Shown: positions 15,419-60,361, counted from the stretch's first letter. The stretch is DNA of 64,000 nt from Candidatus Obscuribacterales bacterium (GCA_031292355.1 JARLHI010000040.1:36090-100089); one strand, 5' to 3'. The notes: generated by a model not told the origin, from the sequence alone. Numbers and translations are program-made.

Positions 15419-15982
15419 TTATTTGATGCTGCGTGCTTTGTTTTTAAAGAAATCAATTAGCAGTTTCTGACAATTGTGTTCAAGTACTCCGCCTTTTACT
15501 TCTGGTAATGGATAAATGCGACCTTCGCAATAGAGATTGAAAGCCGAGCCAACCGCACCCGATTTGATATCATACGCGCCAAAAACCAGACGCGGCACAC
15601 GTGCTTGTAACAGTGCCTCTGCACACATGGGACAAGGTTCCAGTGTTGTGTATAAACAAACATCGTCCAGGCGCCAGCGATTCAGATGCGCAGCAGCCTG
15701 GCGAATAGCGATGATTTCTGCGTGCGCGGTTGGATCTTGATTTAATTCGCGTTGATTATGTGCGGAGGCGATAATGACGTTATTTCTAACGATGACACAC
15801 CCCACCGGCACGTCTGTGGCTGAATTTTCGGCTTCTGCAAGAGCCGCTTTCATCCAATTTTGGTCCGGGTTAAGCGAATTTGGGTCAGTCACGGCAAGAT
15901 TGTTCTTTTCGAAAAATGTTTTCGAGAAATTGTCCAGAAATACCTTCATCAGTATATATCCAGAAGTTAAGCGAGAAGCCAA
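15419..15982 (-). CDS. tadA: tRNA-specific adenosine deaminase
   Basis: HAE…PCPMC zinc-deaminase motifs (HAEIIAIRQAA, LEPCPMCAEAL). The true start may be the internal MKAALAEA. Confidence 0.8.
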   Translation of the reverse strand: MASRLTSGYILMKVFLDNFSKTFFEKNNLAVTDPNSLNPDQNWMKAALAEAENSATDVPVGCVIVRNNVIIASAHNQRELNQDPTAHAEIIAIRQAAAHLNRWRLDDVCLYTTLEPCPMCAEALLQARVPRLVFGAYDIKSGAVGSAFNLYCEGRIYPLPEVKGGVLEHNCQKLLIDFFKNKARSIK

Positions 15983-16726
15983 TCTGGCGAAGGGTTTTGA
16001 TTCAGGGGTGCATCAAAGCTGTTCGTTTGGTTTCAAATTAGGATTCGGGCGAGATTGGTGGGAACATTCCTTGACCTCTCTCGCCCGTATCGCCTTTCTA
16101 GCTTTTTTTTCAATTTTTTTCGGTGGTCATGGCTTTTATGCCAAAGCGTCACTGGGACTGATTGCTCTGGTGCAAAAGTCGAATGCATTACCGATTTGAT
16201 TTTTATAGCACACCGATTGCTTTTTTATGACCATCTTTAGCGAGTCTGAAGCTTTGCCGTTACACCAGGCTTATGACAAATCGATCATAAATGTGTCTGC
16301 GTCGCGCGAACTGCGCCATATCTGTGCGTGCTACATAGCTGCGCGAAGTAATCAAGCTGAACTGAAAATGTGCAAATTTGTTACATCCCTTACTGCCACG
16401 GGCCGAGCGTTTGCAGAGGTGGCCAGGAAGATCTGAACAGAGCATTAGCAGGTGCTTATGTGTTTTAAGCTCTTGATATATCTCTTTGAATTTATCTAGA
16501 TCTAAGTACAAGTTCTATACCTACTTCTCTGTTTAGCATTCCAACACAGCACAAAACGCAATTCCAATTGAAACAGAACGCCGATTGAACGAGCTTTTGC
16601 TTGTCTGTCGTCGACTGCTTCTGAAGACACCAAACGGAATTTTGTCGTTGCCGCGTGCTCACCATCTTTTGCATCACTGCTCTCAGGGTTGCCTGCTTGC
16701 AGAACTAATCCACTTGGGAGGCAATC

Positions 16727-17761
16727 ATGCCTAACATCCACATCATCTGGTCTTTCAACGGTGGCGGCACACGCGGCATCATGCAGGCGCGTGCGGTTCA
16801 ACGTCTTGAAGAACGTCTCGGTACCCAACTTGCATCCATCCAGGGCCTCAAGCATTACTTCATTGGCACATCCACCGGAGCCATTGTCGCTCTTGCGCTC
16901 ACCAAGCCCAAAGCCGATGGCACACCTCTTTACCGCGGTGGTGACATCGTCAATCTCTACTACAACGACAGCCCCACCATCTTCCCCAAAAACTTCTGGC
17001 GCCTGCTGCTTTCGCTTGTTGTTAATTGCGGCAGATATCCAGCGTCCGGCATCGAGTCTGTGTTCAAGAAGTATCTGGGTGGCACCACTCTCGGTGAACA
17101 CATGCACAATGTGATCGTTCCGGCTACGCAGACCGGGCCGATTTTCCAACCCTTTTTCTTCAAGAATTACGACAAAGACGACGCCAAGCGTCAAGCCTGG
17201 TTTGTCTGCAGAGCATCAACTGCGGCTCCGCAGTATTTCCCGCCGCTGGCTGATCCTTCGCTTGGACCGGATGGTTGCTTCATCGACGGTGGCATTGAGG
17301 TCAATGCACCGGCGATTAGCGGACTGGCCGAGGCCATGCTTAAGGCCAATGACGATGACGAATTCATCGTTGTCTCCTTCGGTACCGGAATGTATCTGCG
17401 CTCCTTCAGCTACAAGACGATGTCGCGTGCTCCCATCTGGAAGCTCCTCGGCACCGTTCTGGATATGCTGACCGGCGGTCAGGGATACATCGTCAGTTAC
17501 CAGTTGAAGCTGCTGTTGAACAAGCAGATACCGCAGATGTTCCAGCATCGCGACAGTGCCATGCGGCGCTTCTTCAACTTCGACACGATGATTCCGCCGG
17601 ACGTCGATAGCATCGATGATACGAGCAAAGCTACTTTGGATAAGCTTGTCGCGCTCGCTGACGAGATGATCGATGTCGAATTGAAAACCGACTTCGACGC
17701 GCTCTGTGAGATGCTCAAGAAGATCCACGCCGGGACTTTCAGCGTTAGAACTGGGGTCTAG
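16727..17761 (+). CDS. patatin-like phospholipase
   Basis: GGGTRG oxyanion motif, GTSTG (GxSxG) nucleophile elbow and a DGG catalytic Asp motif (FIDGGIEVNAP). The minus-strand ORFs 16502..17194 and 17216..17770 are antisense shadows. Confidence 0.8.
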   Translation: MPNIHIIWSFNGGGTRGIMQARAVQRLEERLGTQLASIQGLKHYFIGTSTGAIVALALTKPKADGTPLYRGGDIVNLYYNDSPTIFPKNFWRLLLSLVVNCGRYPASGIESVFKKYLGGTTLGEHMHNVIVPATQTGPIFQPFFFKNYDKDDAKRQAWFVCRASTAAPQYFPPLADPSLGPDGCFIDGGIEVNAPAISGLAEAMLKANDDDEFIVVSFGTGMYLRSFSYKTMSRAPIWKLLGTVLDMLTGGQGYIVSYQLKLLLNKQIPQMFQHRDSAMRRFFNFDTMIPPDVDSIDDTSKATLDKLVALADEMIDVELKTDFDALCEMLKKIHAGTFSVRTGV

Positions 17762-17932
17762 AAAATGCAAAGTCAGCGACAGTTGTTCTTATCTCATAAG
17801 ACAACTGGAGCTGACTTTGTATAAACGCAGCGCATGGTGCGTATGCGGCCGCTTGAGATAAGTAATCTCTTGAGTCGACGGTAAGAATTCGGCGCGGTGC
17901 GACCCACCATTGGTTAAGAAGGATATTCTGGA

Positions 17933-18148
17933 ATGACTTTAACGAAGACCAAGAACGTTCAGACTGTCGCTCGCGAAGTGGTCGGTAAGCCCATTCGTGA
18001 GGCGGAAGCCTTCATCACCGAGGCTGGTTTTATCAGCCGCGTGGTGATCGTTCATGGGGTCGGTATTCCCGGCGCTCATGAATATAACGATAAACGCGTC
18101 AAGCTTTTCGTCGAGAACGACGTGGTTTACGACACCCGCGTCGGTTGA
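17933..18148 (+). CDS. potato inhibitor I (MEROPS I13, CI-2/eglin-like) family serine protease inhibitor, copy 1
   Basis: 71 aa ending …RVKLFVENDVVYDTRVG, with VGKPIREAEAFI…; matches the CI-2 fold signature (…VGK..E.A…R.DRVRLFVD…PRVG). No signal peptide. Confidence 0.65.
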   Translation: MTLTKTKNVQTVAREVVGKPIREAEAFITEAGFISRVVIVHGVGIPGAHEYNDKRVKLFVENDVVYDTRVG

Positions 18149-18158
18149 GGAGGTGACA

Positions 18159-18485
18159 ATGTTTGGTCGTAATAAAACCGCCACGCGGGCGCCTCCTGTC
18201 GAGTGCAATGGGCGAATTCTCAATAGAGCCCCCTATCTGTTTGGAGGAGGCTACACCTTCATCACCGTCGCTATTCTGGTTGAACTCCCAGATGGCGGCG
18301 AGGAGGTGGTGTTGGAATATTCAAACAGTGCTTCGGTCAAGGCTCTCGCTTTGTGTAAACCCGGGCACAAGGTCAAAGTCTCGTTGGATCGTGAGAGCTC
18401 TGAAGCTCCGTGGAGTATTCAGAATTTTAAGATTGACTACGACGTCAAGGGTGAAAAGCTTGCCCTTGAGAAACTGACCGGCTGA
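18159..18485 (+). CDS. hypothetical protein (108 aa)
   Basis: ATG 10 nt after the I13 stop, preceded by GAGGAGG. ORF track frame 18054..18485, trimmed to MFGRNK. Confidence 0.5.
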   Translation: MFGRNKTATRAPPVECNGRILNRAPYLFGGGYTFITVAILVELPDGGEEVVLEYSNSASVKALALCKPGHKVKVSLDRESSEAPWSIQNFKIDYDVKGEKLALEKLTG

Positions 18486-18501
18486 GATCAGTCAAACGCT
18501 A

Positions 18502-19080
18502 GTGAAACGGGCGATGCACACTTTAGAATTGGCCGTTTCTTTATGCAGTTGGCACCATCTTTTTCCAACTAAACTTCATTGCTTGTTTATAAACTCTTCG
18601 GTCTATACGACTGAGAAAGACTACAAAGTGTCGATTTTCTCTAACACCGCTGGTGCGGCATTGTGCTTTTTGATTGTGTTTGTCATTTGCGTTGCAGCGC
18701 TTGTGGACTGGCGGCAAGCCCGTAAGGAGCGTGCGGAACTTAGACTGTCCGACGATTTGTGGCGCTTCCCAATCTCGTACAGGGCGCTTCTCAAAGATTG
18801 CGGTGCGTACATGACAGATGACGCTGTGCAAAAATATTTAAAGGCAATAGTCAAAGGCTATGAGGATTCGCGAACTCTGCTCCGAATGGGACAGGTTGAT
18901 CGCGCCTCCAAGCGTTTTGTTTATGTGCAGTGGTGCTTTCACAAGGCTCGCGAAAGTGCAGCTGCAGCAGCTTACAACGCTGAAACGGAATCTCTTTTGT
19001 TGGACGAGGCGGATGTAGACTTCGATGAAGTCGCAAGTTCTAACGCGCTTCTGGCTAGACGTCGAGCGGCCAAACAGTAA
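18502..19080 (+). CDS. hypothetical membrane protein
   Basis: One TM helix (AGAALCFLIVFVICVAALV). Start uncertain. Confidence 0.4.
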   Translation: MKRAMHTLELAVSLCSWHHLFPTKLHCLFINSSVYTTEKDYKVSIFSNTAGAALCFLIVFVICVAALVDWRQARKERAELRLSDDLWRFPISYRALLKDCGAYMTDDAVQKYLKAIVKGYEDSRTLLRMGQVDRASKRFVYVQWCFHKARESAAAAAYNAETESLLLDEADVDFDEVASSNALLARRRAAKQ

Positions 19081-19162
19081 TTCAAACGCGCCTTCTTTGG
19101 TTTTGCAAGCGCCATTTGCATGACCAGAGGAGGTTTCACGACCCCAGGTTGGAGTATAAGAG

Positions 19163-19906
19163 ATGCTGTGTACTAAACATCCCACCACGCTGAAAGGCGC
19201 CGCCGAAATCATGGACAGAGCATGCAGTGACTGCGGCAACCTGACCTACTCCGATTGCCAAATTTGCGCGCAGTGCAGCAAGGGCTATGACGAATGTCAG
19301 CGCTGTCGTGCACCGTTGAATAGTTACGTCGACCCACGCAAGCTCGCCGCATTCACGTCGCCTCTCGCTCAAGAGATTCGTAAAAACAAGCTGCTGGCCA
19401 GGGAAACCTTTCTGACCAAAAAGCATGATGCCGAGCGCAACTTTACTGTGTGCACGGCAGAATATAGAAATCTGGTGCGTGAGCAAATTGCACCACATCA
19501 GCTAATCTGCGAAAAAGCCTGCAAGCCCCACAGAGACAAAGTGGCGGCTGTGAGCGAGTCGCTGGGTGGCGAGCTGGCTGACGACAATTTGATGTTCCTG
19601 CAGAAGTCAGTGATTCATCCACGGCTCAAGGAAGCCATCGAAAAATGCGATGCGGCCTGTTTGTCTATCCAAGATAAATATGAGCATGATGTGAAGGGCT
19701 TCTTCGCGGCGTATCGCAAAGCAATAAGACCGGCGAATGCATCGTTGAAAAGGCAGGTAGCCAACGCTCAAGATGAGATGAATCAGCGAATTCGTTCGCT
19801 GGATGATCAGCTGGAAATCTTGCTATATCGTTCGACAAGAATTCGGTACATGGTCCTCGGTGCCATCAGCGATTTCTTTCGAGGCATTCTTCGTCCAAAG
19901 CGTTAG
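19163..19906 (+). CDS. zinc-ribbon (multi-CxxC) N-terminal domain protein with coiled-coil C-terminus
   Basis: CSDCGN…CQICAQCSKGYDECQRC cluster, then a helical region. Followed by a terminator. Confidence 0.55.
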   Translation: MLCTKHPTTLKGAAEIMDRACSDCGNLTYSDCQICAQCSKGYDECQRCRAPLNSYVDPRKLAAFTSPLAQEIRKNKLLARETFLTKKHDAERNFTVCTAEYRNLVREQIAPHQLICEKACKPHRDKVAAVSESLGGELADDNLMFLQKSVIHPRLKEAIEKCDAACLSIQDKYEHDVKGFFAAYRKAIRPANASLKRQVANAQDEMNQRIRSLDDQLEILLYRSTRIRYMVLGAISDFFRGILRPKR

Positions 19907-19947
19907 CCGCGTCAGGTCAACGTAGTGAAATTGAATGAGCAACAGTG

Positions 19948-19990
19948 AAACGGATGATGCGCAATCTGCATCGTCCGTTTTCTTTTATTA
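19948..19990 (+). terminator. rho-independent terminator
   Basis: 13-bp stem AAACGGATGATGC/GCATCGTCCGTTT (one mismatch) with a 7-nt loop, followed by TCTTTTATT. Confidence 0.65.
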
Positions 19991-20117
19991 CCAGTCGCAT
20001 CCCATTCGCTTCACGGAGCAAATTGGCTGAAATTGGCGGATTCCATGTTTTCCTAATAAACCCTCACACCAAAGGTGGTGCATCACCACGCGATACAAAC
20101 AGATAGAAAGACAGAAC

Positions 20118-20546
20118 ATGTATTCCCGCTTGCAACAATTCGAGACCTGTTTTACCACATTCACCGGGCAGGACTTTTTCGTAGTCTTGTTCTACATGGC
20201 GTTGGCATTTGTTGTCGCCGTCATTTTCTTTGTCGCCAATGAGCTCCTGAATTACAACCTTACGAATCTGGTGCCCCATACCGTCGACCAGGCGCGTGAA
20301 CATCACAATAGACTGAAAGATCGCATTGGCTCGGCACGAACAAACCGCAGCCCTGCGTTTGATTACGATTTTGGAGACAAATTGCTCCTAGCGGTCACCT
20401 TGTGTCTCGATGACGCCGACCGAAAGGTGGCACGCGCTCCTTCGCATATCAAAAGCTATAAGGAAGCGTGGAAAGACGTCAAACTGGCGCTGAGACAGCT
20501 TCGGGAAGTCGAGGCACTCTTCGACTACGTACCCAACGAAGATTGA
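20118..20546 (+). CDS. single-pass membrane protein, unknown function
   Basis: One TM helix (FFVVLFYMALAFVVAVIFFV). 16-nt gap to the downstream QueC-like gene. Confidence 0.5.
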   Translation: MYSRLQQFETCFTTFTGQDFFVVLFYMALAFVVAVIFFVANELLNYNLTNLVPHTVDQAREHHNRLKDRIGSARTNRSPAFDYDFGDKLLLAVTLCLDDADRKVARAPSHIKSYKEAWKDVKLALRQLREVEALFDYVPNED

Positions 20547-20562
20547 CAGTGAGGAGCTAATT

Positions 20563-21660
20563 ATGCAGGAATTGTCGATAGTGCTCAAAGAGCGTCGGCT
20601 AGAGATGAAAGGTCCAAAGGGACTGGAAAGTCTTGAGCTCGCGCAGAATTATTCTCTGACGCCGCTTTCGCGCTTTCTGTTTTCTCAGCTCGGCGCGATG
20701 TTTCTTGTTTCACCATATGTTGAGCCTCGAATTCGGACGAATTTTCAAATCTGTCCGGAGATACGCTCGCTCTTTGCTGGCATGTATGAGTCGCTTCAAC
20801 AAGCTCCTCCTCGATTCTTCTCGTCGGACGATCAGCCGTGGCAACTTCCAACTCTCCGTGAACCTTCGCTTCAGCGAGCAGCTGTTGCTCACGGAGGGGG
20901 CAAGGATTCGCTGCGCAACATCTGGTGGGCTGAAGAAGAATACGGAAGAGAAAACGTCCTAGCAGTACATGTAAGTGGGCTGAATCGAGCGGTTGCAAAA
21001 CGCGAGCATGAATATTGCGATCGTCAACAGAAAGAGTTGGGGTTTCACAACTTCAAATTTGTCGAGCTCAAGAACGGCTCGCGAAGCGCCGGACATGAAA
21101 TCATGCGCGCCAGAGACTTCTTTCTCCTGGCGTTAATCATTCCGGATGCACTCGAGTTTGGAGCTTCCACTGTTATCACCGAGGGCTATGCTGAGACAAA
21201 GGAGAATGAGCCGTTTTCTGGAAAGGTTGAGAACATGCGGTTCTTCAATCAGATATTGAGTCGGCTCAAGATTCCATGTCAGGTCGCCTGGCGCGATAGA
21301 GAAGAAGTTTACGCCGTGAAAGATCTGCTCATTCACCGCAGTGGGTGGCTCGATCACGTCGCCAACTGTTTCACCCCGGCAAAATACTTTGGTGTTTATC
21401 GTAGCTGCTGGGAGCGCAACGCACCATCACTTCGACTCTACGATTCACAGTGTGGCTCGTGTCCAAAATGCCGGACGGTAAATCTGGCGAGGATTCTTTA
21501 CGACAAGCGCACCACTGATAATTTGGCATTGTCAGATGCGCAGTATTTTCTCGCCAACACAAAAAGCTGGATGGGCAGGAATCGGGTCAAATTCGCCGAT
21601 TTCATTGACGGTAGTTTTGGCGAAGAATTTGCCAGAGCCTGTCAACGGTATTCTCGTTAG
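20563..21660 (+). CDS. QueC-like PP-loop ATP pyrophosphatase (adenine nucleotide alpha-hydrolase superfamily) with ~110-aa N-terminal extension
   Basis: PP-loop HGGGKDS (SGGxDS-like). Blocks align to QueC: IMRARDFFLLALI ~ VPGRNILFLTLA, ITEGYAETKENEPFSGK ~ ITGVCETDFSGYPDCR, and C-terminal CGSCPKCRTVNLARIL ~ CGHCAACNLRANGL. No queD/queE/queF nearby. Confidence 0.65.
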   Translation: MQELSIVLKERRLEMKGPKGLESLELAQNYSLTPLSRFLFSQLGAMFLVSPYVEPRIRTNFQICPEIRSLFAGMYESLQQAPPRFFSSDDQPWQLPTLREPSLQRAAVAHGGGKDSLRNIWWAEEEYGRENVLAVHVSGLNRAVAKREHEYCDRQQKELGFHNFKFVELKNGSRSAGHEIMRARDFFLLALIIPDALEFGASTVITEGYAETKENEPFSGKVENMRFFNQILSRLKIPCQVAWRDREEVYAVKDLLIHRSGWLDHVANCFTPAKYFGVYRSCWERNAPSLRLYDSQCGSCPKCRTVNLARILYDKRTTDNLALSDAQYFLANTKSWMGRNRVKFADFIDGSFGEEFARACQRYSR

Positions 21661-21748
21661 CTCAACGGTTTTTTAGATAGAACCTGGCTGCAGTCATCGG
21701 ATTGATGCAGACCAGGTTCCATTGCAGCATGTTTTTGTGGAGACTAAC

Positions 21749-22405
21749 ATGACCCAAAGCAAGCAACCAGCAAAGAATAAAGTGTCTTACGAACATCTTC
21801 GCGAAGTCGGCGACCGTTTAATGGCGAGTCTCAGACCGCATTTCGAAAAGCTTTATCGCGAGCACAATCCTCTCAACGTGACGTTTCTCCATCCGGGTAG
21901 CCTCATGTGCAAACAGTTGCTCTCGAAGGAAGAGCCGTGGATTACTCACGTGCACAAGGGATACTATTTGGTCCGTGCAAATTCGCTATTTGTGGTTCTC
22001 GATGAAGCGCTGCCCGAAGCTGTTTTGCCGAAGGCTTTCGAGGGCATTCCTGTGGATTATGTCGTCTATCATGCTCCGCAAAAGACTGCTTGTTATCGCG
22101 ACAAAAATATGAGAACGCCCGAGTGGAAAGCCGCCATCACCGAAGCGACAGCGCTCTGGTCGCGGCTTTGCGAAGAATTTTACTCTGCTCATGGTGACGG
22201 TGGTTCATGCGTATTGGGTGCTGGAATTGCGGTAAGGTATTTGCCTCCGCGGTGCCGTAACACAACGCTGGAAATTGTTATCCATGACTATCAAGGGTTT
22301 CGCAGCCAATCTTGCGCAGTGCACGAGGCGACCAAAATGGAAGTAATCATTTTTCTCGCAAGCAAGGGCATCGAGGCCGTTTGGGATGCAGGTCATATGG
22401 GCTGA
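21749..22405 (+). CDS. hypothetical protein (218 aa), third gene of the QueC-like operon
   Basis: ORF 21722..22405 re-started at MTQSK after GGAG. No recognisable motif. Confidence 0.5.
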   Translation: MTQSKQPAKNKVSYEHLREVGDRLMASLRPHFEKLYREHNPLNVTFLHPGSLMCKQLLSKEEPWITHVHKGYYLVRANSLFVVLDEALPEAVLPKAFEGIPVDYVVYHAPQKTACYRDKNMRTPEWKAAITEATALWSRLCEEFYSAHGDGGSCVLGAGIAVRYLPPRCRNTTLEIVIHDYQGFRSQSCAVHEATKMEVIIFLASKGIEAVWDAGHMG

Positions 22406-22489
22406 CATCTGCAAAGGTGTTGGAAAGAGCGATCTAAACGAGGGTGTAAGCGGTATTTCCAAAATGCCGCTCACATTTTTTAGAATTGA

Positions 22490-22501
22490 CTTTGCCTAAA
22501 A
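22490..22501 (+). repeat. conserved intergenic 12-mer, site 3
   Basis: Exact 12-mer. Context GAATTGACTTTGCCTAAAAAGAAG. Confidence 0.6.
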
Positions 22502-22965
22502 AGAAGTGAGTTTCACCTAACGTTTGCATCGCTAGTATCTGCTAGGCAGTCCACTATTTGTTCATCAGCGCATACCGGTTTACCTTCGCCAGTCTGATTT
22601 GCTGACCACTTCTTCCATTATCTTGAACTTCTAGGCTGTCGCTTAGCCTTATCTGTGCAGGCTTCTAGGGCTTATGTGTCGATAGCCGCGAGTTCCGTAG
22701 GAGCCGCCTATGAGTTGCGATGTCATCGTCATGACGAGCAGAATGAAGTCACACATCCAATTAAAACTAATTTGCCTGAAAGCTAACTCCATCTTCTAAT
22801 TATCTCGATCATCTAAATCAATCTAGTACTCGTAATGTGAGTGCAGGCTCGCTCGCTAGAGATCTGCTTGGGCATTAGAGACTCAATAATCTCCGCGCTT
22901 TTTTGGAACACAAGGCGCTGAGTGATGAAGACAACCTCGACCACAAACCTTTATGGAGACAAAGG

Positions 22966-23187
22966 ATGACTGATATGAATGATACGACCAACGAAGTGCA
23001 GGCGGTGGCCAGCGAAGCGATCGGTAAGACGCTTCGCGAAGCCGATGCTCTAATCTCTGCTGCTGGATTCGTGAGCAATGTGGCTTTCAATCATGGGAAG
23101 GCCATTCCCGGCATTCTCAACTTCAGAGGCGGGCGCATACAACTTCACGTCAGAGACGACATAGTCTTCGACGCAAAGGTCGGCTGA
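22966..23187 (+). CDS. potato inhibitor I (I13) family serine protease inhibitor, copy 2
   Basis: 73 aa, IGKTLREADALI…GGRIQLHVRDDIVFDAKVG. About 50% identical to copy 1, same family signature. ATG after AAAGGA. Confidence 0.65.
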   Translation: MTDMNDTTNEVQAVASEAIGKTLREADALISAAGFVSNVAFNHGKAIPGILNFRGGRIQLHVRDDIVFDAKVG

Positions 23188-23226
23188 CTGGCGAATAGCT
23201 CGAAAAGCATAAGAAAAGGAACGGTT

Positions 23227-23793
23227 ATGAAAAATGGAAATAGCAAATCCCAGTTAAGATCGCTTAATCGCGCCGCTCATCGCGTGTTTGGCGATTTGTT
23301 CTCTATCGGCGAACCACTTCCGATCAATTCTATCAGCGGCGACGAGCTTTCCAATTGCGATCCAACTGATGGATTGGCGAAGTTTGTTCAAAACTTCCAA
23401 ATGGTCATTTGTCCGGTGCTCCGACACGAACACCTTATGTGCACCTTCACAATGTTGAAGGAAGGAAGTTCCTGGGGACTACACTCGTTCACTTATGGAA
23501 CGTCGACTGAAAGTCAAGTTTTGTTCAGTCAGGTTGCCGAGTGCAAAAAAACTATAGGGCACACTGATTTTCGATTAATCGATTTCAACAGTCTAAATCG
23601 TCAGTGCTTGAGTTATAACACTCCCGCTGGTCTGAGACTTTATTGTCTTCGTTACTGGCCGAACGATCCCGACCTAATTCGGCGCAGCAGAGATCCTATC
23701 GTTTTACTGAACTTTTTCAAAGAAGAGTGGGCGAGAAAGAAGAAGATGATCGACGAGAACACTTCTTCTGATCTCGTTGGCGGCTCTAGCTAG
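23227..23793 (+). CDS. hypothetical protein (188 aa)
   Basis: ORF 40 nt after I13 copy 2. No recognisable domain. Confidence 0.5.
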   Translation: MKNGNSKSQLRSLNRAAHRVFGDLFSIGEPLPINSISGDELSNCDPTDGLAKFVQNFQMVICPVLRHEHLMCTFTMLKEGSSWGLHSFTYGTSTESQVLFSQVAECKKTIGHTDFRLIDFNSLNRQCLSYNTPAGLRLYCLRYWPNDPDLIRRSRDPIVLLNFFKEEWARKKKMIDENTSSDLVGGSS

Positions 23794-24472: not shown

Positions 24473-25426
24473 TTACTTGCTGTCCGAACTGGCCAGCAGT
24501 TGACCGACAGCAAAGTCACTGGCGGTGCTCGAATTCTGAGGCACCATCAGCACCTTGGTCGCGGCGACGCCGATCTTGAGCAGCGTATCCATGTCGAGTT
24601 GCTTGTTCAGAATGACGAGGATCTCACGGCGAAGTGAGCGCTTTTCCTCGGCAGTCGCTTTGCCCAGACCGAGCGCTGTGCCGAGCGACTTGATGGAGTT
24701 GGCATAGGCTCTGCCGATTGCGATACGCTGCAGACCCACGCCTTCACCGCCAAGTTTCATCTTCTGCTTGTTGGCAGTCGCTCGGGCAACGGTCTGAATC
24801 TTGTTCGTCTCGCCCTGAGCCTCTGCCGTCAGCTTCTTCTGAGTCTGCTCGTAGACCGCATCACGTGCGTCTTTGACAGTCGTCGGCAGGATGATATTGT
24901 TCAGATTGACGCTGAGAATATCGTATCCATTGTCTTCGAGGAAGTGCTCGAGTTCCTCTCTGACCGCCAGAACGATGCCGGTGGTGTCGGTGAACACCTC
25001 TTCGAGGTCCATTCTGGGCGCCTTGGCGAATGCCACCTTGCCGACATGGGACTCGATTTGCTTGAGGGGCTCGCGCAGATTGAACATGGCTTCGCGTTCG
25101 CGACCCGTCTTGACCCGAATCGCGATGGTCAGTTCGAGTACGACGGGAACCTTGTCCTTTGTGGTCGTGTTGACCTTGATCACGTGCTGCTGACTTTGCA
25201 GCGACCAAGGCGCCGTCAGCGTCTCGAAGATCGGCAGTTTCAGGCAGGGACCGGAACCGACGATCTTGATGAATCTCCCCTGACGAAGCTTCGCCCGGAA
25301 GTGCTTGGGCGGAGTGATTCGAATGCTGCCGATCAGTGTGCATATGAAGAGGATCGCCAGGACGGCTGTGAGACCGAGAGTGACGTAGAAACCGATGTTC
25401 GATGAATCTTCCATTGTAGACTCCAA
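24473..25426 (-). CDS. SPFH/Band-7 (stomatin/flotillin-like) membrane protein, paralog B
   Basis: N-terminal TM, then an SPFH core (…TKDKVPVVLELTIAIRV…, NGYDILSVNLNNIILP…). About 45% identical to the upstream paralog. Confidence 0.75.
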   Translation of the reverse strand: MESTMEDSSNIGFYVTLGLTAVLAILFICTLIGSIRITPPKHFRAKLRQGRFIKIVGSGPCLKLPIFETLTAPWSLQSQQHVIKVNTTTKDKVPVVLELTIAIRVKTGREREAMFNLREPLKQIESHVGKVAFAKAPRMDLEEVFTDTTGIVLAVREELEHFLEDNGYDILSVNLNNIILPTTVKDARDAVYEQTQKKLTAEAQGETNKIQTVARATANKQKMKLGGEGVGLQRIAIGRAYANSIKSLGTALGLGKATAEEKRSLRREILVILNKQLDMDTLLKIGVAATKVLMVPQNSSTASDFAVGQLLASSDSK

Positions 25427-25498: not shown

Positions 25499-26458
25499 CT
25501 AGGCTGCGAGAACCCCCTTGTCGGTGACACCGAGGTTGTGCTGGAACACCAGAACCGTGCCGGTCGAAGTGCCGACCTTCACGAGAGTCGCGAGCTCGAG
25601 CTGCCGATTGAGCAACTTGGTGATCTCGTCGTGCAGTTCCTTCTTCTCTTCCTCGGGAGCGTCTTCAAGTTCGAGAGCTTCGCTCAGTTCGTTGATGGTG
25701 ACGACAGAAGCATCTGCAATCGCCATACGCTCTTCGCCGACGCCTTCACCGTCGAGCTGCCGTTCGATCTTGTCGGCTTCGGCCGCTGCGAGAACCAGAA
25801 CGGCTGCTGTTTCACCGGCAGCCTTTGCGGCGATCTGCAGCTGGGTGTTCACGTAGACCGCATCGCGCGACTTCTGAACCGAATCCGGCAGGGTGATGCC
25901 GTTGAGGTTCACCGAAAGAATGTCGTAGCCGTTGTCGTTCAGGAATTTCGAGATATCCGTCGCGATAGCGGCGATGACCTTGCCAGAGTCGCCGTAGAGG
26001 GTGTCGAGATCCATGGTGGGCACGAGCGCGAGTGCGACTTTGCCAACATGGGACTCGATCTGCGGAACGGGATCGGCCAGGTTGAACATCGCTTGTTCTT
26101 CTTTGCCGCGCTGAACCCGGATGGCGACATTGAGCAGAAGCGAAACCGCGACCTTGTCCTTGGTTGTCGTGGTGACGGTGATCGCATACTGGACGCTCTG
26201 CAGCGAGAAGGGCTCCGAGAGCGAGTGCAGAATCGGCACGACGATGCACCAGCCCTCATGGACGATCTTGACGAAGTTGCCCATTCGCATCTTAGCGCGG
26301 AACGTCATGGTCTGCGTCTTGCGAACGAATATGGCGATGAACAAGGTGGCGGCGACGAGCACCGTACCGAGTAGAAGTATGGCTGTCTGAAAAAGTTGCA
26401 TGAGAAGACTCTCCTTAAGGTTGGTTGATTTCTCTTCTGTGCTCTTTTTATTTGGCAT
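25499..26458 (-). CDS. SPFH/Band-7 membrane protein, paralog A
   Basis: Same architecture as paralog B (…TKDKVAVSLLLNVAIRV…, NGYDILSVNLNGITLP…). Confidence 0.75.
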   Translation of the reverse strand: MPNKKSTEEKSTNLKESLLMQLFQTAILLLGTVLVAATLFIAIFVRKTQTMTFRAKMRMGNFVKIVHEGWCIVVPILHSLSEPFSLQSVQYAITVTTTTKDKVAVSLLLNVAIRVQRGKEEQAMFNLADPVPQIESHVGKVALALVPTMDLDTLYGDSGKVIAAIATDISKFLNDNGYDILSVNLNGITLPDSVQKSRDAVYVNTQLQIAAKAAGETAAVLVLAAAEADKIERQLDGEGVGEERMAIADASVVTINELSEALELEDAPEEEKKELHDEITKLLNRQLELATLVKVGTSTGTVLVFQHNLGVTDKGVLAA

Positions 26459-30913: not shown

Positions 30914-33088
30914 TTACACTACGTCGGTCTTCGGGGCGCTGGAAGCGTCCGTAGAAGCCGGCGCAGCACTGGCGTCAGCATCAGGAGCCGGAGCGACTGT
31001 GGGCTTTGCGGCAACTGCGGCGGGAGCACCACCGTCGATACCAGCGAGCTTGGGCAGCAACATGGCGCCGATGAGGTCGGCCATTGAACCACCGCCATTG
31101 CCACCACCGGTGGAAATTTGCGGCACGATAGGCACCCTGATCTCGACGAGCGCGCGCGTCTGTTCGAGACGAGCAACGTTGTCTTGACCGAGTGCGTCGG
31201 ACTTCTTGCGATAGGCTTCGGCTTCGGCAGTACCAGTCGCGAGAACGACGGCCGCTTCGGCTTCACCCTTGAGCTGAATTGCTTTCGCTGTTGCAACGCC
31301 GACTGCTTCGATGCGGGCAGCTTCACCAGAAGCCCGTTCCCTGGCAGCAAGAGCGTCGTTCTTGGCGATGAGGATGCCGGCTTCAGCCTTCCGGATGGAT
31401 GACTGCTGATCGGCTTCAGCCTTGGTGTTCTCGAGCGTGACGCGCGCCACTTCGGCGAGCTGCTGCGAGGTGTACATCTCCTTGCGTTGATCGGCAAGGT
31501 TTTTGGCCGACTGCGTATCCATCAGGTCCTTGGGCAGGTTGATGTTGGTGATCAAAACGGCAATCACCTCGATACGATAGTCACGCAGCGCGTTCTGCAC
31601 CTCGACGAGGGCACTGGCTGCTTCTTCGGCACGCTTCTTCATGTAGTTCAGCGCCGGCGACTTGGAGACCTGCGAGCGGAAAATGCCGTCCACCTGTGGG
31701 TGAATGACGTTTGCTTCCAGGGCATCGATGTCACCGAGCTTGGAGATGACGTAAGGGACGTTCTCCGGCAGCACGCGGTAGTTGACCCGAACTTCGACGG
31801 TCATCTCGAAGCCGTCATTGGAGACGACCATGAAGGGGTCGAAGTAGTTCGTCTTTTGGTCTTCCTTGGCATTGGCCCACTCGACGGTACGAGCAGACGT
31901 CGGCCATGGAATGACTTTTTCCGCGTAGGGGTTGATAGCATACTTGGCCGGCTGCAGCACTTCGCTCTGCAGACCGCGTTCGCCTCGATTGACGACATGA
32001 AGTGCGCGACCACCGCTGTTAAGCCGGTGTTCGGCGGTGTCGGTGGCCGACCCGTCGATTGTCGTGGTAGATGGTTCTGCCTTGCTGGTGGGCTCGCTGC
32101 CTGTGTAGGCAATGCGGGCGGCCACGAAGCCAGGAAGCACCTCGTACAGTTCCTTCATTTCGATTTCGAAAGCATCGGTGTTGATGTAGTATCGACCGGC
32201 ACCAAGCACGCGATCTTGTGGACCAGCAAAGCCGCCGAGGGTAACAAACTGCTGCGCGTCGGAGAAGATGTTGTCGGTCGCGGCAGGAGTGGTGGCACAT
32301 ACTTCGCCAGCAGGCAGCGGTCGGCCGATCTTGGCGATCACGATACCGACCTTGCCCTTCGGCACATCGGTGGCGGGCATCGTCTTGACGTCGAAGACTG
32401 CGGTGTTGATGTTGTAGACACCGGGCGGCAGAATCTCGATCTGTCGACCTTGCTGTCCGCCATTCTTGATGAAAGTGGCAGCATCCTGGAAGCGGTCGTG
32501 ACCTTCGACCTTGTCGCCGAGAATCTGACCGGCAGACGTCCGTAAGGGCTTACCGTCCTTGGCGTAAACGAGACCGACCTGACCTTCGGGAATGACAGTC
32601 CGATCGATGATGTCGATCTTGAACTGCAACGGATGGATGAACTTGGCGCCAGCCGTCAGCAGCTTGAGCTGCGTGCCGACGATGCCGCCGTTTTCCATGA
32701 AGCCGTTGACGTCCTGGAAGTTGTCGTGATGATCGCCAGCGGCGTCATCGGCGAAGTTGCGACCAGCCGGAAGCGGCTTGCCATCGAGCGCCGTGACGAC
32801 AGCCAGTTTTCCCTCGGGCACGATGGTGATGTCTTTCATCTCCTTGATGCGCCGATTGGGATAGGCTACGAAGTGCCATCCCTGCTTGTAGTAAGTGCGT
32901 AGCACGCCGATTTCGTTGTCGCGAGCGAGGATGCGACCGGTTTCGATGCTCTTGCCCTTGAGGGTGTTTTCGAGCAATGCGAGCTTGCCGCTGGGAACCT
33001 TGCGGACCCAACGCGTAGCGAGCCAGAGAAGCGCTGCCAGAACGACTACACCGATTCCGGTGTAGATGCCGAGATTAACGAAGTTCAT
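30914..33088 (-). CDS. large flotillin-like SPFH protein with three N-terminal ~65-aa repeats and an Ala/Glu-rich coiled-coil
   Basis: N-terminal TM. Three repeats of VPEGK.GVV.A.DGKPL…H..FQD…F…GG…. SPFH core (MTVEVRVNYRV…, YRIEVIAVLITNINLPKDL). Flotillin-like EA-repeat coiled-coil. Pro/Ala-rich tail. Confidence 0.7.
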   Translation of the reverse strand: MNFVNLGIYTGIGVVVLAALLWLATRWVRKVPSGKLALLENTLKGKSIETGRILARDNEIGVLRTYYKQGWHFVAYPNRRIKEMKDITIVPEGKLAVVTALDGKPLPAGRNFADDAAGDHHDNFQDVNGFMENGGIVGTQLKLLTAGAKFIHPLQFKIDIIDRTVIPEGQVGLVYAKDGKPLRTSAGQILGDKVEGHDRFQDAATFIKNGGQQGRQIEILPPGVYNINTAVFDVKTMPATDVPKGKVGIVIAKIGRPLPAGEVCATTPAATDNIFSDAQQFVTLGGFAGPQDRVLGAGRYYINTDAFEIEMKELYEVLPGFVAARIAYTGSEPTSKAEPSTTTIDGSATDTAEHRLNSGGRALHVVNRGERGLQSEVLQPAKYAINPYAEKVIPWPTSARTVEWANAKEDQKTNYFDPFMVVSNDGFEMTVEVRVNYRVLPENVPYVISKLGDIDALEANVIHPQVDGIFRSQVSKSPALNYMKKRAEEAASALVEVQNALRDYRIEVIAVLITNINLPKDLMDTQSAKNLADQRKEMYTSQQLAEVARVTLENTKAEADQQSSIRKAEAGILIAKNDALAARERASGEAARIEAVGVATAKAIQLKGEAEAAVVLATGTAEAEAYRKKSDALGQDNVARLEQTRALVEIRVPIVPQISTGGGNGGGSMADLIGAMLLPKLAGIDGGAPAAVAAKPTVAPAPDADASAAPASTDASSAPKTDVV

Positions 33089-58585: not shown

Positions 58586-58734
58586 CAAATTCTGCAATCC
58601 GTCCTAAGCGGTGCAGTCAAGTTCCGTAGCAACTTGAATTTCGCGTATTGGAAAGTGCCAGGCCCGGCTGGCGCTTTCTTCACAGGTGTGTCACATGAGT
58701 GGTGCATCCTCAACTTTAGAACCAGGAGATCAAT

Positions 58735-59469
58735 ATGTCTGTTGTTATCGAAGTAGTTGGTGTCGTCGCCGTTGTCGGTGGTCTGGCCTACTGGCAGATC
58801 CCGGCTGTCCGTCAGCTTTTCCGCATCAACCGCGATAAAGTCATCGCGGCGAGCTCGACTCCTCTGGAGCGCATCACCGACAACGTCAATCAAGCCATCG
58901 CCAAGCTGCCGGCTCAGCGCGCGCTGGTCGCCCAGCAGATGACGGCGGCGCAGCGGGCTCAGACCAACGCCCAGAACAAGCGTGACGAGGTCGAGGATCT
59001 GTTCAAGCAGGTGAATGTGGCGATCGGCGCGAATGCCACCGCGGCGACCATCACCACGCTGAAGCAGCGCTGGCTGACGGCCAAGGGTGCAGTCGTCGAC
59101 CTGGACAAGGTGTCCGAGGAGGCGCACAAGAGTGCCGACGACGCGCAGGCCGAACTCGAGGATCTGCTCACGTTGATCCAGCAGAGCAAGGCCGGCGCCG
59201 AGAAGCTGAAGAGCGATGCCAACTTGACCGCGATTCTGCAGCAGTCGACCCAGTTCCGCACGCAGGTCAACGACCTGAAGTCGGGGCTCGGGGCGAATGC
59301 CGCCGATGTGCAGGAAGTGCAGGACGCGCTGTCGAATGCTCGCAACGCCAACGAACTCTCCAAGGGTTCGGCTGCCGATCGCGAGATGGCCGATATCGCC
59401 AAGAAGACCCAGGCAAGCGCCGCCGATGACGCCTTCGCCGCGGAGCTCGCCGCGCGCGCCGGCAAGTAA
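58735..59469 (+). CDS. PspA/IM30 (Vipp1/ESCRT-III-like) family protein, paralog 1, with N-terminal hydrophobic extension
   Basis: Helical heptad sequence aligns with PspA (LERITDNVNQAIAKLPAQRALVAQQMTAAQRAQ…). Extra N-terminal MSVVIEVVGVVAVVGGLAYW. ATG after CAGGAG. Confidence 0.6.
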   Translation: MSVVIEVVGVVAVVGGLAYWQIPAVRQLFRINRDKVIAASSTPLERITDNVNQAIAKLPAQRALVAQQMTAAQRAQTNAQNKRDEVEDLFKQVNVAIGANATAATITTLKQRWLTAKGAVVDLDKVSEEAHKSADDAQAELEDLLTLIQQSKAGAEKLKSDANLTAILQQSTQFRTQVNDLKSGLGANAADVQEVQDALSNARNANELSKGSAADREMADIAKKTQASAADDAFAAELAARAGK

Positions 59470-59492
59470 GCACCATAAGCGGTGCTTGGACA

Positions 59493-59531
59493 AGCAGTGA
59501 TCCTGCTTTAATGAGGTAAGCAAAACTTACC
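59493..59531 (+). repeat. conserved double-hairpin 3' element, copy 1
   Basis: AGCAG-TGATC-CTGCT and GGTAAG-CAAAA-CTTACC hairpins 7 nt apart. A nearly identical copy lies after paralog 2. Confidence 0.6.
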
Positions 59532-59540
59532 TATAGACTC

Positions 59541-59589
59541 ACCAGCTCGACAGAGCCACAAGCTTCGTCGGGCTGGTGTTGTTTTTCTG
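59541..59589 (+). terminator. rho-independent terminator after pspA paralog 1
   Basis: About 10-bp stem CCAGCTCGAC/GTCGGGCTGG (one mismatch), followed by TGTTGTTTTTCTG. Confidence 0.55.
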
Positions 59590-59680
59590 CGTTCCAACAG
59601 ACTGTTCCAACCCTCTTTCTCATCGCGGCAACTTCAGCTCAACCGAGTTGAAGAAATCGAACCATCATCAGGAGTTACAC

Positions 59681-60361
59681 ATGAGCCTCGCTTCTTCTTT
59701 CCTTCAGGCTTTCCGCATCAACGGCGAAAAGGTCGTCTCGCATGGCTCGACCCCGCTCGAGCGCATCGAAGACAACGTCAAGCAGGCCGAAGCTCACCTG
59801 CCGCAGCAGCGTGCGCTGGTCGCCCAGGAGATGACGGCCGCGCAACGTGCGTCCACGAATGCGGATAACAAGCGTGCCGAAGTCGAATCGCTGTTCAAGG
59901 AAGTGCAGACTGCGATGTCCGCCTCGGCATCAGCCGCCACCGTCACCACGCTGAAGCAGCGCTGGCTGACGGCCAAGGGCGAGGTCGAAGCGCTCGACAA
60001 GATCGCTCTCGATGCCCATACGGCCGCCGACGAAGCGCAGCATGACCTCGAAGGGCTGCTCTCGTTGATCCAGCAGAGCGAACAGGGCGCCCAGAAGCTC
60101 AAGGACGACGCCAATCTGGCCGAGACCCTGAAGCACTCGACCGAGCTGCGTCAGCAGGTCAACGACCTGAAGGCCGGCCTCGGTGCGAACGCCGCCGATG
60201 TCGCCGCCGTCGAAGACGGTCTGGCCAACGCGCGCAACGCTGCCGAACTCTCCAAGGGTTCGGCTGCCGACCGCGAGATGGCTGCCATTCACGAGAAGAC
60301 CCAGGCGAGCGCCGCCGACGATGCCTTCGCCGCGGAACTCGCCGCGCGCGCCGGCAAGTAA
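59681..60361 (+). CDS. PspA/IM30 family protein, paralog 2
   Basis: About 65% identical to paralog 1 over the helical core. Identical C-terminal KGSAADREMA…AADDAFAAELAARAGK. ATG after CAGGAG (ORF track start 59576 trimmed). Confidence 0.6.
   Translation: MSLASSFLQAFRINGEKVVSHGSTPLERIEDNVKQAEAHLPQQRALVAQEMTAAQRASTNADNKRAEVESLFKEVQTAMSASASAATVTTLKQRWLTAKGEVEALDKIALDAHTAADEAQHDLEGLLSLIQQSEQGAQKLKDDANLAETLKHSTELRQQVNDLKAGLGANAADVAAVEDGLANARNAAELSKGSAADREMAAIHEKTQASAADDAFAAELAARAGK

Follow-up and report, generated by a model that had tools for sequence, protein, structure and literature searches.

Patatin-like lipases often serve as effectors that are secreted or injected (ExoU and Tle-type enzymes), and members of the potato inhibitor I/CI-2 family (MEROPS I13, PF00280) inhibit proteases rather than lipases. 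CapV-type patatins act as cyclic-nucleotide-activated lipases in CBASS and, like other PF01734 proteins, carry a GGGxRG oxyanion loop, a GxSxG serine and a DGG aspartate. Enzymes related to QueC occur in two defence settings: Cap9 of type IV CBASS, a minimal QueC core of ~185 amino acids with the QueC motifs that is encoded beside a CD-NTase and Cap10, and QatC of QatABCD. The substrate and catalytic signature of QueC and Cap9 comprises YxQxHxxE, VPxRN and YPDC (PMC13329287), and QueC-family enzymes in defence are documented to act as ligases on protein N-termini (PMC13329287; bioRxiv 10.1101/2025.04.06.647259).

We compared these systems with a block of ten genes in a metagenome-assembled genome of Candidatus Obscuribacterales (Melainabacteria), located within a 64-kb stretch of DNA that was analysed as a whole (the window). 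A sequence-only reading had likened this block to a coherent defence or effector island. With a probability of about 0.68, we consider it instead a fluid accessory region, made up of independent genes, in one Obscuribacterales lineage and not a single multi-gene system.

Layout of the block and its non-coding elements

Ten consecutive ORFs on the plus strand (g1 to g10) span positions 16727-23793, as the sequence-only reading had described, and independent gene calls in public assemblies of the same contig match all ten (Table 1). The block lies between two sets of conserved chromosomal genes, ADK-TPR-TadA and Band7/FA-hydroxylase/HAD. Its base composition is not distinct, with a GC content of 0.509 against 0.524 +/- 0.052 and a GC3 of 0.569 against 0.573 +/- 0.106 in the rest of the window, and thus give no compositional island signal; nor were tRNA or repeat boundaries found around it.

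Table 1. Positions of genes and non-coding features in and beside the block, counted from the first nucleotide of the window
Feature	Position	Strand	Remarks
Probable small conserved membrane ORF	15984..16199	+	C-terminal part of ORF 15774-16199; divergent from TadA
Non-coding leader and promoter region of patatin gene	16200..16726	+	~530 bp; conservation among relatives
g1, patatin-like phospholipase / lipid acyl hydrolase	16727..17761	+	344 aa; Pfam PF01734, PADLOC, motifs
Structured intergenic RNA element	17762..17932	+	171 nt; folding and covariation
g2 (I13a), CI-2 / potato-inhibitor-I-like	17933..18148	+	71 aa; no Cys, no signal peptide
g3, soluble protein	18159..18485	+	108 aa; this lineage only
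g4, single-pass membrane protein with helical tail	18514..19080	+	188 aa
g5, Cys-rich helical protein, Zn-ribbon-like N-terminus	19163..19906	+	247 aa
Terminator-like hairpin after g5	19947..19990	+	15-bp stem and T-run; hairpin 19947-19981
g6, single-pass membrane protein	20118..20546	+	142 aa
g7, QueC-fold PP-loop ATP pyrophosphatase	20563..21660	+	rare uncharacterised family
g8	21749..22405	+	218 aa; seen in window genome only
Terminator-like hairpin after g8, then one motif copy	22449..22501	+	hairpin 22449-22471, with T-run 22449-22480; motif 22489-22501
g9 (I13b), paralog of g2	22975..23187	+	70 aa; 94 aa if translation begins at TTG 22903
g10	23227..23793	+	188 aa; seen in window genome only

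Because terminator-like hairpins follow both g5 and g8, the block is predicted to comprise at least three transcription units and is not one operon. The hairpin downstream of g5 is retained in the related contig L008, where it directly follows g3 (L008 positions 2343-2382, 90% identical). Beyond the g8 hairpin lies a copy of the intergenic motif ACTTTGCCTAAAA, a 13-mer with four exact copies in the window; its 12-mer core has five exact copies and ten at up to two mismatches, far above the 1.7 expected by chance. The 560-bp ORF-free region with this 12-mer, formerly placed at the edge of the block, does exist but falls inside it, between g8 and g9 (22406-22974).

The other reported flank, a 740-bp gene-free region, corresponds to a gap of ~744 bp upstream of g1 (15983 to 16726) that is only partly free of genes. 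Its first ~215 nt probably encode a small membrane protein, since the open frame and the sequence of its product are conserved in three genomes (window, L026 and L027; LAKGFDSGVHQ...LARIAFLAFFSI...SNALP), at 88-89% nucleotide identity. The remainder forms the patatin leader, which is 79-87% identical to L026, L027, L008 and L025 and 63-66% identical to L009, and contains invariant blocks such as CTCTTGATATATCTCTTTGAATTTATCTAGATCT; from the synonymous divergence of the genes flanking it (0.5-1.1), the calculated identity at neutral sites would be roughly 55%. No open frame is maintained across the leader, it has no Rfam match, and its RNA stability is unremarkable (z +1.1).

On the other side of g1, a ~25-bp hairpin stands directly 3' of the patatin stop and is followed by smaller hairpins. 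The minimum free energy of this RNA element is -65.8 kcal/mol (z -5.3), a value that no sequence among 200 shuffles reaches. It is kept in five genomes, with 93.8% of cells paired and compensatory changes in six pairs against 1.6 in shuffles. It belongs to no Rfam family, the sole match being a chance-level miRNA (E 0.15).

Patatin, inhibitor-like pair and lineage-restricted proteins

The gene identities assigned from sequence beforehand, namely a patatin, two I13 paralogs, a Cys-rich protein, a QueC-like PP-loop enzyme and membrane proteins, were upheld. The patatin g1 matches Pfam PF01734 at 1.9e-16 (61.3 bits against a gathering cut-off of 27.7), and its motifs GGGTRG at residue 12 (oxyanion loop), GTSTG at 47 and DGG at 187 are complete, which indicates an intact Ser-Asp dyad and a catalytically intact enzyme. 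Its full-length architecture is shared with CapV, and CBASS effector models match it at 1e-31 to 1e-42: the PADLOC phospholipase effector model PDLC00758 aligns over the full length at 3.5e-42, and NCBIfam CBASS_lipase (NF041079) reaches 3.3e-31, although its 108.7 bits are far under the equivalog cut-off (200 bits). Among the sequences of solved structures, the best matches are four patatin chains (E 7e-13 to 9e-12) that include one named a CBASS cGAMP-activated phospholipase; a plant patatin is nearly as good (1.7e-10), whereas CapV is weaker (6.9e-7). Non-CBASS patatins (7e-30 and 5e-26) are likewise closer relatives than CBASS lipases (4e-12). Annotated relatives reach only ~29% identity, and the best of them is plasmid-encoded in an amoeba endosymbiont.

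The two inhibitor-like genes differ in how well they fit their family. The Pfam score of g2 against PF00280 is borderline (25.4 bits, cut-off 24.5), and almost all of its solved-structure sequence matches are CI-2. No match of g9 to PF00280 was obtained at E<=1; it aligns with g2 over 66 amino acids at 47% identity (E 5e-21), and both proteins carry the (K/Q)L(F/H)V motif as well as (R/K)VG at the C-terminus. Like CI-2, g2 is ~70 amino acids long and free of disulfides, with a VGK...A helix start, an R-V-(K/R)-L-F-V motif and a C-terminal RVG, and the CI-2 reactive-site loop aligns with a putatively exposed loop of equal length. The predicted structure is too uncertain for a fold call, and the bacterial, cytoplasmic context, with no obvious target protease nearby, sets the pair apart from the I13 family. 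Among the compared relatives, g9 was found in the window genome only.

A detectable family is lacking in six of the ten proteins. The soluble protein g3 has no match in Pfam, NCBIfam, PADLOC or PHROGs; L008, L026 and L031 encode orthologs of it with 46-53% identity (dN/dS 0.27-0.31), and it is missing in L009. The membrane proteins g4 and g6 have single hydrophobic segments at residues 46-64 (KD 2.97) and 21-39 (KD 3.02). Orthologs of g4, which gave no family match, occur in L009, L026 and L031 (58-81% identity) and not in L008; g6 has an ortholog in L026 only (68%) and is missing in L008 and L009. Seven of the 13 cysteines of g5 lie at residues 21-48 as CxxC-type motifs, and orthologs are present in L009 (58%) and L026 (75%). 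For g5, g8 and g10 alike, searches of Pfam, NCBIfam, PADLOC, PHROGs and plasmids gave no match.

A QueC-fold enzyme of a rare family

The predicted model of g7 is confident and its top fold matches are QueC and Cap9. Profile scores are low, with 14.7 bits against Pfam QueC (PF06508, cut-off 22) and no match to the PADLOC QueC/QatC models. A QueC-like core is flanked by an N-terminal extra domain of ~100 amino acids and by a helical domain at the C-terminus, and the protein is twice the size of Cap9. Its PP-loop is GGGKDS at residue 111 (family consensus S/G-A/G-GKDS), and the zinc-motif cysteines C269, C297, C300 and C303 are invariant, spaced as C(x)27CxxCxxC where QueC has C(x)8CxxCxxC. None of the three QueC/Cap9 signature motifs is found in an alignment of 28 family sequences; g7 has HxxGxN(x)6E, MRxRD and (T)EG instead, and the family retains H136, N141, E148, M181, R184, E207 and G208 as invariant or near-invariant residues. 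A further full-length family model scored 19.2 bits (cut-off 700), its match being limited to 37 residues around CxxCxxC, and just 3 of the 28 members match it at all.

This family accounts for 50 clusters among 1.84 billion and, in a scan of species-representative genomes, is almost confined to Patescibacteria and one DPANN archaeon. Its members there are solitary and sit amid housekeeping genes: across 16 loci no common neighbour was found by BLAST, and by Pfam the same family, of housekeeping type, recurs in at most 2 of 16. Cap9 and QatC are unlike g7 in this respect, as neither a CD-NTase with Cap10 nor qatA, qatB or qatD accompanies it; TGT, QatA, QatB and QatD are all absent from the 64-kb window.

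Mosaic variation among relatives and its interpretation

Six related contigs, which are metagenomic and several of them short, carry the patatin at 80-93% identity (dN/dS 0.09-0.13) between unchanged flanks, with differing subsets of the other genes. L008 has pat-I13a-g3-g7 and lacks g4-g6, L009 has pat-I13a-g4-g5-g7 and lacks g3 and g6, and g8 is missing downstream of g7 in both; L031 reads pat-I13a-g3-g4 up to the contig end. In L026 the patatin is followed by I13a cut to residues 34-71, by g3-g6 and by codons 1-20 of g7, then Band7, g10 having been lost along with g7-g9. In L027 and L028 the patatin stop is joined to the middle of the FA-hydroxylase gene by a deletion of ~9.6 kb, which an integrase fragment adjoins. 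A PIN/FitA toxin-antitoxin pair lies nearby in L027.

Thus g7 is lost where g3-g6 are kept and the reverse is also seen, g8-g10 occur in the window genome only, and g1 is the sole lineage-core gene of the locus, intact in L026, L027 and L028 although I13a is truncated or missing there. Joint loss and joint occurrence of the genes as one system were not observed across L008, L009, L026, L027/L028 and L031; with the solitary g7 homologs elsewhere, orthologs largely lack neighbourhood conservation. All genes common to the relatives are under purifying selection, g1 and g7 being the most constrained and the small genes evolving faster (dN/dS 0.2-0.3 against 0.1 for the patatin). The traceable differences are mostly deletions, not mobile-cassette insertions. 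Small genes that come and go quickly between fixed flanks, an effector-type enzyme and the integrase fragment are features shared with defence islands and variable islets; the locus differs from these in having no recognised defence system, compositional anomaly or tRNA or repeat boundary, and in this predominance of deletions. These observations do not bear out a coherent island, though the view that no described system matches still stands.

In an accessory region of independent genes, the three or more predicted transcription units between conserved chromosomal genes would work separately. The patatin g1 would be a catalytically competent Ser-Asp lipid acyl hydrolase with its promoter in the conserved leader, and the RNA element that follows its stop probably influences where the transcript ends, how stable it is or whether there is read-through into g2. 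The cytoplasmic g2 and g9 are most likely tight-binding inhibitors of subtilisin/chymotrypsin-type serine proteases that, judging from family membership, would act through a variable exposed loop. The proteins g3-g6, g8 and g10, two of them single-pass membrane proteins and one with a Zn-ribbon, would be small, lineage-restricted and individually dispensable products under purifying selection. Finally, g7, with its QueC fold, PP-loop and four-Cys zinc site, is predicted to act on its own as an ATP-dependent adenylating enzyme that may activate a carboxylate for amidation or ligation; the distribution of its family, centred on Patescibacteria and DPANN, suggests that the lineage probably gained it by horizontal transfer.

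Several observations run against independence. High turnover, an effector-type lipase and a Cap9/QueC-like enzyme are usual company at defence loci, as are the integrase fragment and the PIN/FitA pair, and I13a and g7 share their fate, each being intact in three genomes (window, L008, L009) and damaged or missing in L026 and L027 (five phylogenetically non-independent genomes). With no family detected for six of the ten proteins, a functional link between the genes could be hidden. The high gene flux fits a conflict-type locus and is compatible with defence or effector roles for individual genes. A new abortive-infection or defence module, in which g7 would license the patatin or an I13a-like partner by ATP-dependent covalent modification without a cyclase, by analogy with Cap9 acting on CD-NTase or QatC on QatB, would account for this flux, for the joint fate of I13a and g7, for the pat...g7 order kept in three genomes and for the full-length fit of g1 to CBASS-type effector models, and draws on the ligase activity documented for QueC-family enzymes. 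We consider it unlikely, since g7 lacks the signature motifs and any PADLOC QueC/QatC match, no CD-NTase, TGT or Qat partner is encoded in the window, deletion of g7 and I13a leaves the patatin intact and still constrained, the g7 homologs are solitary in streamlined genomes, and no relatives were found on viral contigs. The PADLOC scan of the ten block proteins matched g1 only and recognised no defence system.

The CBASS_lipase match, the cGAMP-activated chain among the top four and the Cap9-like fold of g7 might alternatively mark a degenerate CBASS-like operon with a CapV-type lipase, a cyclase lost or elsewhere in the genome and g7 as a Cap9 relic. This is highly improbable: the lipase is under the equivalog cut-off and closer to non-CBASS patatins, no CD-NTase model matched the ten block proteins or the 51 other window ORFs, none lies beside the patatin in relatives, the patatin persists across relatives as a lone gene with a long leader of its own, and g7 has neither the size nor the motifs of Cap9. 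The patatin could also be a toxin delivered to competitors, prey or hosts, with the I13-like and small membrane proteins as immunity or accessory factors; such lipases commonly serve as effectors, a small gene lies directly 3' of the patatin in most relatives, the small genes evolve faster, and the best annotated relative comes from an amoeba-endosymbiont plasmid. An arsenal of this kind is improbable, given that sequence reading and hydrophobicity reveal no signal peptide or delivery domain in g1, g2, g3, g9 or g10, that no secretion-system gene lies within the 64-kb window, that I13 targets are proteases and that a patatin persisting without intact I13a in three relatives is unexpected for an obligate immunity gene.

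There is a slim chance that the conserved core of patatin with leader, RNA element, CI-2-like gene and g7 constitutes a new conflict module. If so, a QueC-family ligase would covalently modify a partner protein and thereby arm or restrain a membrane-destroying lipase, providing protein modification as in type IV CBASS and Qat without a cyclase or nuclease. As a separate and more probable matter, g7, the most novel part of the block, would establish a new enzyme family that has the QueC fold but acts on a new substrate, and would be a solitary housekeeping gene in the ultra-small Patescibacteria and DPANN.

Composition and transcription units of the block

The ten consecutive plus-strand genes at 16727-23793 (g1-g10), which the sequence-only reading had proposed as a defence- or effector-type island, were confirmed by their ORFs and by separate gene calls in public assemblies with the same contig, and the gene families named in that reading hold. 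Our preferred interpretation, to which we assign a probability of roughly 0.68, is that of a fluid accessory region in which a lineage-core patatin is followed by independent genes. The block proteins are annotated at NCBI as hypothetical proteins of a Candidatus Obscuribacterales bacterium MAG, for which the NCBI locus tags are P4L53_09200-09225. The upstream flank encodes TadA, a TPR protein and adenylate kinase on the minus strand, and the downstream flank contains a 128-aa membrane ORF, two Band7 genes, a fatty-acid hydroxylase, a HAD hydrolase and an APH-like kinase. No tRNA or Rfam family was found across the whole window. The two downstream Band7/SPFH genes are tandem paralogs with a mutual identity of ~48% and a GC3 of 0.72-0.73, markedly above the 0.57 of the block, and a third Band7 gene is located further downstream.

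Coordinates of features in and around the block (window positions unless a locus is named)
Feature	Position	Strand	Remarks
Small ORF	15984-16199	+	within ORF 15774-16199
Patatin leader	16200-16726		
g1, patatin	16727-17761	+	
RNA element	17762-17932	+	171 nt, directly after patatin stop; ~25-bp hairpin and smaller hairpins
RNA element copies	L008 1585-1753; L009 1567-1751; L025 1389-1555; L026 7224-7400		
g2, I13a	17933-18148	+	
g3	18159-18485	+	
g4	18514-19080	+	
g5	19163-19906	+	
Hairpin after g5	19947-19981		15-bp stem
g6	20118-20546	+	
g7, QueC-fold enzyme	20563-21660	+	
g8	21749-22405	+	
ORF-free stretch	22406-22974		holds the 12-mer
Hairpin after g8	22449-22471		
g9, I13b	22975-23187	+	
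g10	23227-23793	+	
ACTTTGCCTAAAA copies	236, 5836, 10069(-), 22489, 62501		also 51841(-) and weaker copies
TTGACTTTGCCTAAAAAGA	233, 22486		at two of the ACTTTGCCTAAAA copies
Tandem Band7 pair	24473-25426; 25499-26458	-	
Third Band7 gene	30914-33088	-	724 aa
Repeat region	58582-60361		exact repeats, offset 892 bp
Integrase fragment and PIN/FitA pair	L027 11409-11738 and 54-712; L028		integrase fragment 109 aa, beside deletion scar

Terminator-like hairpins follow g5 and g8, the former kept in the related locus L008, and the block therefore comprises at least three units (g1-g5, g6-g8 and g9-g10) rather than the single operon originally envisaged. The ORF-free stretch holding the 12-mer, described as a flank, does exist but is located inside the block. 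The intergenic motif ACTTTGCCTAAAA has 10 matches in the window at two or fewer mismatches versus 1.7 expected. As it recurs across the window, usually 10-15 nt past a T-run, we regard it as a probable genome-wide element of this organism, serving as promoter, operator, other regulatory sequence or spacer, rather than as the boundary of an island.

Comparison of the composition of the block with the remainder of the window, as the sequence-only reading had suggested, revealed no difference in GC or GC3, and a foreign composition was rejected on this basis. Per-gene GC3 ranges from ~0.37 to 0.78 in blocks, and the stretches at 30.9-47.9 kb and 55.5-60.4 kb are examples of GC-rich ones. Such a mosaic composition of the genome makes GC-based island calls unreliable here. 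A recent duplication within GC-rich genes, either tandem or segmental, is indicated by many exact repeats of at least 16 nt at a constant offset (e.g. 59051 versus 59943).

Gene content across sister loci

Sister contigs were retrieved with g7 and g1 searches and carry patatins 80-93% identical to g1 at a dS of 0.5-1.1; a metagenome scan with the patatin as query added one short contig and no more. Where the contigs reach them (L026, L027/L028 and L031), the flanks are those of the window, but the content between them differs. L031 encodes TadA, the patatin, I13a, g3 and g4 before the contig ends; L008 has the patatin, I13a, g3, the g5 terminator sequence and g7, followed by unrelated DNA; and L009 has the patatin, I13a, g4, g5 and g7. 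In L026, g7-g10 and the 128-aa ORF are deleted, leaving the patatin, residues 34-71 of I13a, g3-g6, codons 1-20 of g7 with a 20-nt scrap, the spacer after g10 and Band7. In L027/L028 a deletion has removed ~9.6 kb, so that the patatin stop (window 17765) runs directly into the hydroxylase gene at window 27399, and an integrase fragment lies next to the junction.

The patatin is thus retained both without I13a and without g7, g3-g6 without g7, and g7 without g3 or without g4-g6, while g8, g9 and g10 occur only in the window genome among the loci compared. This independent variation of gene subsets runs counter to a coherent island. All shared genes are under purifying selection, with dN/dS of 0.09-0.13 for g1, 0.05-0.10 for g7 and 0.17-0.31 for g2-g6, values comparable to those of the Band7 genes; these genes are therefore real, yet individually dispensable.

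The L027 deletion removed g2 through the hydroxylase N-terminus, including the tandem Band7 pair. The phage-integrase fragment beside the scar and a PIN/FitA toxin-antitoxin pair ~9 kb upstream hint that a mobile element took part in remodelling the locus.

Non-coding sequence around the patatin gene

The region upstream of the patatin had been considered gene-free throughout, but its first ~215 nt contain an open and conserved frame, so the gap is shorter than claimed. The window, L026 and L027 share a conserved version of the encoded product (LAKGFDSGVHQ...LARIAFLAFFSI...), which is probably a small membrane protein encoded divergently from TadA; the start of the ORF may overlap the TadA 5' end. 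The remaining ~530 bp, the patatin leader, has no conserved reading frame and shows 79-87% identity with four of five relatives and 63-66% with L009, with invariant blocks such as CTCTTGATATATCTCTTTGAATTTATCTAGATCT. This identity is far above that predicted from dS, indicating constraint. As the stability of the leader as RNA is not unusual (z +1.1), it is probably promoter/operator DNA with a long leader.

The 171-nt element between the patatin and g2 folds with an MFE of -65.8 kcal/mol (z -5.3). Five genomes keep it, and six of its base pairs carry compensatory changes, compared with 1.6 in shuffles. Searches of the leader and intergenic regions, including this element, identified no riboswitch or known RNA and no Rfam match. 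A role in cis-regulation or RNA processing is conceivable for the element, as is one as a small RNA.

Protein families and competing interpretations

The g1 protein is a patatin by Pfam (1.9e-16) with intact GGGTRG, GTSTG and DGG motifs, and membership in this family would imply lipid acyl hydrolysis. It matches PADLOC models of CBASS-type phospholipase effectors over its full length (3.5e-42) and scores 108.7 bits against the NCBIfam CapV equivalog, well under the 200-bit cut-off. Among solved structures, the best matches of g1 (7e-13 to 9e-12) include a CBASS phospholipase, with a plant patatin nearly equal (1.7e-10); g1 scores worse against CapV (6.9e-7) than against the plant protein, and its closest annotated relatives are non-CBASS patatins (~29% identity). 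Word-based homolog searches with g1 and g2 returned sister-genome orthologs and nothing else.

The g2 protein marginally passes the Pfam potato-inhibitor-I threshold (25.4 bits; cut-off 24.5), and its sequence matches to solved structures are nearly all to chymotrypsin inhibitor 2 (CI-2), whose family is known mainly from plants. Its AF2 model, built from a shallow alignment of four sequences, has a pLDDT of 58, too low to establish the fold. The g9 protein is a 47% identical paralog, and this is the sole paralog pair among the small proteins (none for g3/g10 or g4/g6). Both are predicted serine-protease inhibitors by family, and orthologs differ most in the segment aligned to the reactive loop of CI-2. 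Each of g4 and g6 has one strongly hydrophobic segment, and g5 has 13 cysteines, seven inside an N-terminal CxxC-rich stretch. No match to g3, g5, g8 or g10 was found in Pfam, NCBIfam, PADLOC or PHROGs, nor any homolog of g5, g8 or g10 in plasmid records.

The g7 protein would be expected, as a QueC-fold PP-loop enzyme, to catalyze ATP-dependent carboxylate activation and ligation on some substrate. The GKDS loop and C269, C297, C300 and C303 are invariant in its family, from which the experimentally defined QueC/Cap9 signature motifs YxQxHxxE, VPxRN and YPDC (PMC13329287) are absent. It is sub-threshold for Pfam QueC and has no match to PADLOC QueC/QatC models. Membership in MurL was rejected, the match being a short motif alone (one 37-residue stretch, 19 bits versus a cut-off of 700, in 3 of 28 family members). 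A word-indexed search of 5.8 billion proteins returned 37 matches, and a full profile search of 1.84 billion representatives gave 50 clusters, counted at 50% identity, at E<1e-30. The outer relatives are unannotated ~350-aa proteins with weak QueC signals in a few. Some (P0146, P0155 and P0150) are 900-990-aa fusions with a true PF06508 QueC domain, one with a ParB_N-like N-terminus; these uncharacterised QueC-fold architectures could help place the g7 family.

In the species-representative genome scan, 12 of 14 g7 loci carry Patescibacteria-group names, the others belonging to a Woesearchaeota (DPANN) MAG and a MAG labelled Pseudomonadales, and no further Melainabacteria with g7 were found. 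These homologs are solitary and surrounded by housekeeping genes, and neither all-against-all BLAST nor a Pfam scan covering 77 proteins from their neighbourhoods revealed a recurrent neighbour in Patescibacteria/DPANN. DoxX/MauE-like genes upstream of two homologs were a promising partner candidate, dropped as not recurrent. A viral origin was rejected, as IMG/VR viral contigs contain no relative and the PHROGs QueC-like match reached just E 0.0014, over the Cys motif. We conclude that g7 defines a rare QueC-fold family with remodelled substrate motifs and extra domains, which in g7 span residues 1-100 at the N-terminus and 305-365 at the C-terminus. Its taxonomic distribution suggests acquisition from the gene pool of Patescibacteria and DPANN, lineages with tiny genomes that keep few non-essential enzymes.

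The observation that the block matches no described system was correct, and the suggested PADLOC check was positive for g1 alone. Three other interpretations keep a low probability, as six block proteins have no family and the activities are predicted from family membership. A novel defence module, with the patatin armed by a QueC ligase, and an effector/immunity arsenal are both improbable, and a CBASS remnant is more doubtful still. All are weakened by the mosaic gene distribution, by missing partner genes (no CD-NTase, TGT or Qat components among the other 51 window ORFs), by motif and HMM tests that came out negative and by the housekeeping context of g7 homologs.

As a candidate system the block chiefly carries a caution, in that same-strand effector-like and inhibitor-like neighbours mimicked a defence island while six sister genomes show independent gain and loss. 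Its CI-2-like genes carry a mainly plant-known family into Melainabacteria, and the constrained leader and covarying 171-nt element together could represent a new cis-regulatory element. Novelty sits mainly in this conserved RNA element and in g7, as a variant within QueC-fold PP-loop enzymes. Nucleobase-protein conjugation has recently been shown for QueC relatives, and the divergent g7 branch is therefore a concrete biochemical target.
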